Positions 48,296-48,380 of a stretch of DNA of 64,000 nt are shown here, in pieces. Source of the DNA: Escherichia coli (lineage in GTDB: Bacteria > Pseudomonadota > Gammaproteobacteria > Enterobacterales > Enterobacteriaceae); NCBI RefSeq assembly GCF_003334315.1, contig NZ_QOWR01000010.1. The stretch is one strand, 5' to 3'. The position numbers were made by a program, and so were the translations under genes. The stretch's first letter is position 1, and each line of letters opens with the position of its first letter. The notes beneath the pieces are model-generated. The model made no database searches. It saw nothing but the letters and a program-made list of their open reading frames with translations, and was not told the origin of the DNA.

Positions 48296-48302
48296 AAATC
48301 GC

Positions 48303-48333
48303 TTTACCTCAAGTTAACTTGAGGAATTATACT
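48303..48333 (+). promoter_or_regulatory. soxS promoter with SoxR operator
   Basis: -35 tttacc (48303-48308), 19-bp spacer containing the palindrome cctcaagttaacttgagg (48307-48324), -10 tatact (48328-48333). Confidence 0.85.
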
Positions 48334-48380
48334 CCCCAACAGATGAATTAACGAACTGAACACTGAAAAGAGGCAGATTT

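Follow-up and report, generated by a model that had tools for sequence, protein, structure and literature searches.

The soxR-soxS intergenic region of E. coli, found here in a window of 64 kb (the whole stretch of 64,000 nucleotides that was analysed), is almost certainly a compact bidirectional promoter run from one SoxR operator in its native setting. The anatomy of the sequence, the identities of the genes, the identity to K-12 and the deeply conserved operator with its constant 19-bp spacing were established in the present analysis; that SoxR binds, activates soxS, represses its own gene and distorts the DNA is taken from the literature on the identical sequence. This control region has already been fully described, and nothing in it is new.

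Sequence analysis identified two divergent open reading frames on either side of the region. The minus-strand ORF (47831-48295) encodes a MerR-family winged-helix regulator of 154 amino acids, SoxR, and the plus-strand ORF (48381-48704) encodes a protein of 107 amino acids, SoxS, the AraC/XylS-family activator of the superoxide regulon. Against the NCBIfam equivalog TIGR01950 (SoxR) the minus-strand ORF scored 248.3 bits, the curated cut-off being 116.9, and against the equivalog NF007584 (SoxS) the plus-strand ORF scored 228 bits, with a curated cut-off of 174. Both gene names given in the original prediction thus stand above equivalog cut-offs, and the annotation of K-12 MG1655 is the same. 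All 154 residues of the SoxR ORF are covered by a match to the E. coli SoxR of known crystal structure (PDB 2zhg/2zhh; E = 2.5e-101), and the translation of the ORF carries the CX2CXCX5C cysteine motif for the [2Fe-2S] cluster.

A 1475-bp segment around the promoter was matched in all 5426 complete E. coli genomes, and the genes beneath the match are annotated as soxR, soxS and pdeC; the gene order in K-12 MG1655 is pdeC, soxS, soxR, ryjA, ghxP. The original prediction had proposed alignment with the published soxS promoter as a check. This alignment gave 100% identity to K-12 MG1655 over the 141 bp that span the intergenic region, and the palindrome in it is the 18-mer 5'-CCTCAAGTTAACTTGAGG that the literature gives as the E. 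coli SoxR box (PMC4411124). Of the 5421 complete E. coli genomes that the 85-bp region matched, 5381 carry it at 99% identity or more. The locus is the native E. coli soxS promoter itself, with the reference sequence, and not merely a lookalike.

The promoter anatomy was recounted base by base from window positions 47500-49200. The segment 48296-48380, which had been designated the soxR-soxS divergent region, is the exact gap between the two ORFs, covering all 85 bp from the soxR start codon (CAT on the plus strand, 48293-48295) to the soxS ATG (48381). On the plus strand the soxS promoter consists of a -35 hexamer TTTACC (48303-48308, 4/6 matches to TTGACA) and a -10 hexamer TATACT (48328-48333, 5/6 matches to TATAAT). 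Recounting the spacer between these hexamers, TCAAGTTAACTTGAGGAAT (48309-48327), gave exactly the 19 bp that had been predicted, the optimum being 17 ± 1. The SoxR operator is a perfect 18-bp palindrome at 48307-48324; a repeat search returned two 9-nt arms (48307-48315 and 48316-48324) that are 100% complementary and directly adjoin each other (0 nt apart). Its prediction as a perfect palindrome holds, but it does not lie wholly inside the spacer as had been claimed: the initial CC (48307-48308) forms the last two bases of the soxS -35 hexamer, and 16 of the 18 palindrome base pairs are in the spacer. The operator end is followed by AAT (3 bp) and then by the soxS -10 hexamer. This 2-bp overlap between operator and -35 hexamer is one of two refinements to the original prediction, the other being that the region is a bidirectional promoter.

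The soxS transcription start would lie at about 48341 on the plus strand (48340-48342), judging from the position of the -10 hexamer and the markup in the supplement of PMC12825309, which gives the soxS and soxR starts approximately and not to the base. This would place the start 7-9 nt past the -10 hexamer and leave a leader of ~40 nt, in which GAGG (48370-48373, plus strand), 7 nt before the ATG, is by its position the putative soxS Shine-Dalgarno sequence. A generic sigma-70 scan limited to spacers of 16-18 bp detected no promoter between soxR and soxS. The soxS promoter is missed because the scan allows only these spacers, which fits an over-long spacer; the miss is expected and therefore no evidence against the soxS promoter. 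An alternative -10 hexamer at 17-bp spacing, ATTATA (48326-48331), was considered and rejected; it has 2/6 matches to TATAAT, with neither of the key bases A2 and T6.

The soxR promoter is on the minus strand. Its -10 hexamer is a perfect TATAAT (48326-48331, reverse complement; PMC12825309), and its -35 hexamer is TTCGTT (48350-48355, minus strand), located 18 bp upstream of TATAAT (PMC12825309 supplement). The soxR -10 (TATAAT) and the soxS -10 (TATACT) are thus on opposite strands and have 4 bp in common; a -10 hexamer shared by the soxR and soxS promoters is described in PMC12825309. In the supplement of that paper the strand in the soxR direction is written as ttcgtt, 18 nt and tataat, followed by the operator. 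TTCGTT is identifiable as the soxR -35 from the 'soxR up' mutation, ttGACA, and the 'soxS down' mutation replaces GGTAAA, the reverse complement of TTTACC, i.e. the soxS -35 (PMC12825309 supplement). From the same markup, soxR transcription would start at about 48319 on the minus strand (48318-48320). At this approximate position the soxR start would be within the right arm of the operator and would be occluded by bound SoxR.

Two further searches concerned the same intergenic DNA. A search for the marbox (SoxS/MarA site) AYNGCACNNWNNRYYAAAY with at most two mismatches, aimed at a possible site behind the SoxS autorepression that has been reported, gave no match in 48296-48380, and matches across the window were below chance. 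Consensus matching does not locate a SoxS site between soxR and soxS. Furthermore, an 8-nt inverted repeat, CATAAATC/GATTTATG, is present at 48293-48300 and 48376-48383, so the soxR and soxS start codons are both within an identical GATTTATG context. The repeat is roughly at chance frequency, with about 0.25 expected per 181 nt by our own rough estimate.

PsoxS/soxR has been studied directly in Nucleic Acids Research, 2026 (PMC12825309). In gel shifts SoxR formed a single complex and mutation of the complete site abolished binding, and SoxR binds only this one site at PsoxS/soxR (PMC12825309). The soxS core elements are described there as separated by a sub-optimal 19 bp, and the 19-bp over-long spacer is also stated in PMC9303308. 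In vitro, SoxR strongly activates soxS and at the same time blocks the soxR transcript (PMC12825309). SoxR was modelled as occluding the soxR start and part of the soxR -10 (PMC12825309). The crystal structure of oxidised SoxR with soxS promoter DNA (Watanabe 2008, as cited in PMC4551924) is reported to show that bending and twisting reorient and shorten the spacing between -35 and -10.

Conservation of the operator was examined by an exact scan for the 18-mer in about 298 Gb of sequence, with each species represented by one genome. At least 120 species have the 18-mer, where an estimate that assumes uniform composition gives about 4.3 chance occurrences; the species include Enterobacterales, Vibrio, Shewanella, Pseudomonas, Alphaproteobacteria, Streptomyces and Nonomuraea. 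The species listed are not independent, about half of them being Enterobacterales. Among the loci listed, a TTKACC hexamer (TTTACC or TTGACC) overlaps the operator's first CC in 114 of 120, and in 106 of 120 a spacing of exactly 19 bp separates the -35-like hexamer from a TANNNT hexamer downstream. A SoxR homologue is present within 400 nt in 94 of the loci listed, and it is upstream and divergent in all 93 that could be oriented. A soxS-like gene adjoins the box in only 58 of the 120 loci listed, and all 58 have soxR next to the box as well.

The loci listed were split by the presence of an adjacent soxS homologue, and identical sequences were collapsed. Among the distinct sequences, TANNNT then lies at 19 bp in 45 of 45 that are soxS-linked and in 48 of 56 that are not, and among the loci listed neither group has TANNNT at 16, 17, 18 or 20 bp. 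The 56 sequences that are not soxS-linked form a distant group, and their spacing outcome is the same as that of the soxS-linked ones. An anchored footprint of 52 distinct soxS-linked sequences revealed an invariant block from -35 to -10 with variable flanks on both sides, and the soxS -10 hexamer TATACT is invariant in the soxS-linked loci listed. These counts show that the 19-bp spacing is under selection, and the known SoxR-box rule is independently re-derived from them.

Three other explanations of the palindrome were weighed. It could be an operator for soxR autorepression only, without activation of soxS and with an incidental 19-bp spacing. The overlap or abutment of the operator with the soxR -10 and start agrees with this, as does the persistence of the SoxR block on soxR when the soxS -35 is destroyed (PMC12825309), but the strong activation of soxS by SoxR in vitro (PMC12825309) contradicts it. 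The spacing counts also argue against it: among the loci listed that are not soxS-linked and belong to distant phyla, TANNNT keeps to 19 bp in 48 of 56 and never moves to 16, 17, 18 or 20 bp. The 19-bp spacing is conserved and therefore not incidental. We consider autorepression alone very unlikely; repression is a second function of the operator and not an alternative to activation.

That the palindrome acts as a nucleic-acid hairpin, i.e. an RNA terminator or attenuator or a DNA cruciform, instead of a protein site is extremely improbable. Folding back is conceivable for a perfect 9+9 inverted repeat, but this one has no loop and no T-run after it, and a terminator scan was empty there. Being upstream of the soxS start, the palindrome is absent from soxS mRNA, and because the soxR start is inside the palindrome, at most one arm would be transcribed in that direction; mutation of the palindrome moreover abolishes SoxR binding (PMC12825309). 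The last explanation, a functionless chance palindrome around an HpaI site (GTTAAC) that happens to lie beside chance hexamers, has a practically negligible probability. Perfect 9+9 palindromes of any sequence are not vanishingly rare in this DNA, with three seen in the window against 0.24 expected per 64 kb, and the palindrome by itself is only moderately unusual. The specific 18-mer, however, has a single copy in the window, and 100 dinucleotide-preserving shuffles searched with up to three mismatches yielded no copy at all; its recurrence in at least 120 species also exceeds the roughly four chance occurrences expected. The fixed distance to -35-like and -10-like hexamers, the adjoining soxR and the invariance of the block while its flanks vary also speak against chance, which is excluded by position and conservation.

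The switch at a single SoxR operator would thus work as follows. A homodimer of the MerR-family protein SoxR, with one [2Fe-2S] cluster per subunit, is expected to occupy the 18-bp palindrome in both the reduced and the oxidised state. Basal transcription of soxS would be low because the 19-bp spacing puts the -35 and -10 hexamers out of phase for sigma-70 polymerase. Upon oxidation or nitrosylation of the cluster, SoxR would bend and untwist the operator; this distortion would shorten and re-phase the spacer and thereby activate soxS, and the SoxS protein would then turn on its regulon. Inducers are redox-cycling compounds, superoxide and nitric oxide, and the regulon includes sodA, zwf, acrAB, micF and others. 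The soxR promoter of the opposite strand (TTCGTT, 18 bp, TATAAT) would initiate inside the operator, and SoxR would repress its own gene because soxR transcription begins within the bound operator. The reading of the original prediction, in which oxidised SoxR untwists an over-long spacer, is supported, with distortion and activation drawn from published work (PMC12825309; PMC4551924). No evidence contradicting this SoxR switch was met in the present analysis.

The left arm of the operator might also serve as the soxR ribosome-binding site, a suggestion that we regard as tentative and rather doubtful. The soxR ATG is at a fixed 12-13 nt past the palindrome in most of the soxS-linked loci listed, and the GAGG of the operator arm (48307-48310, minus strand) is the only Shine-Dalgarno-like motif in the ~24-nt soxR leader. 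If the suggestion is true, three roles would constrain the same bases at once: SoxR half-site, edge of the soxS -35 and soxR ribosome-binding site. This triple constraint could help to explain the invariant 18-mer in enterics.

Compared with PsoxS/soxR of E. coli K-12, the region has the same genes, -35, 19-bp spacer, -10 and operator; there is no difference, and it is the same locus. The sequence features of a SoxR-dependent promoter are all present: 18/18 operator positions agree, the operator lies between -35 and -10, the spacer is 19 bp and SoxR is encoded. Likewise, the two-stage arrangement of enterobacterial soxRS is found, with soxS as the target and divergent from soxR. The soxS promoter belongs to the same class as the over-long MerR-type promoters merT/merR of Tn21 and Tn501, copA/CueR, zntA/ZntR and bmr/BmrR. 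Individual promoters of this type have spacers of 19-20 bp. They have a dyad operator between -35 and -10, their regulator is bound in both states, and activation occurs by DNA distortion (PMC4551924; PMC9303308). As in mer, the regulator gene is divergent. SoxR responds to the redox state of its [2Fe-2S] cluster, whereas the signal of other MerR-type regulators is a metal or drug ligand, and the operator sequence is SoxR-specific, unlike that of other MerR-type promoters. Also unlike other MerR-type systems, the direct target of enteric SoxR is a second transcription factor, soxS, which results in a two-stage cascade.

Similar to the E. coli element, the non-enteric SoxR boxes of Stenotrophomonas mfsA and of the Pseudomonas and Streptomyces regulons have the same or a nearly identical operator and a 19-bp spacer, and soxR is often divergent (PMC4411124; PMC4146615). 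These boxes drive efflux pumps, oxidoreductases and other effectors directly, and soxS is absent outside Enterobacterales, a soxS-like gene standing beside the box in only 58 of the 120 loci listed. With the overlapping -10 hexamers of soxR and soxS, the region also belongs to the Warman/Grainger class of bidirectional promoters with a shared -10 (PMC12825309).

Two insertion alleles were noticed among the E. coli genomes. In the clinical strain E138 (NZ_AP022351.1) an IS1X4-family (IS1) element is inserted in the soxR-soxS region (L122, 2180-3075). It is flanked by a 9-bp target duplication, GAGGAATTA, equivalent to window positions 48321-48329, and splits the -35 and the SoxR operator from the soxS -10; from this arrangement the allele should uncouple soxS from SoxR. 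Strain TUM2820 (NZ_CP135688.1) harbors an IS5-like ISKpn26 element between ghxP and soxR (L123, 697-1677), in or beside the sraL/ryjA region. In the window, the Hfq-binding sRNA sraL (= ryjA; ryjA in K-12) was located by Rfam at 47698-47838 on the plus strand with 153 bits. The sRNA and soxR are convergent, with an overlap of 8 nt at the 3' end of soxR (47831-47838), and a terminator-like stem-loop of 13 pairs (47807-47837) is common to sraL/ryjA and soxR.

Elsewhere in the window, the longest perfect palindrome is CGTTATTGGTACCAATAACG, of 20 bp (10+10, no loop), at 27112-27131 within a coding region. It is about 16-20 nt upstream of an Rfam SECIS_2 match (27147-27201) and a UGA codon. The gene is presumably fdhF, as judged from coordinate mapping to K-12 and the K-12 map. 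The third perfect 9+9 palindrome is AT-rich, at 57228-57245 (TATTATTAAATTTAATAATG context), and is probably of no significance, given its low complexity. Rfam also reported six matches to naRNA4 (RF02564, nucleoid-associated ncRNA) with 71-111 bits, at 44-320 (plus strand), 29670-29853 (minus) and 40388-40459 (minus); three of these are arranged in tandem at the window start with a 100-nt period.

The main worth of the result is calibration, a textbook element having been recognised and correctly placed, and its spacer correctly counted, from the raw sequence. For the organism, the E. coli response to superoxide and redox-cycling drugs begins at this promoter, which contributes to multidrug tolerance via activation of acrAB and micF by SoxS.
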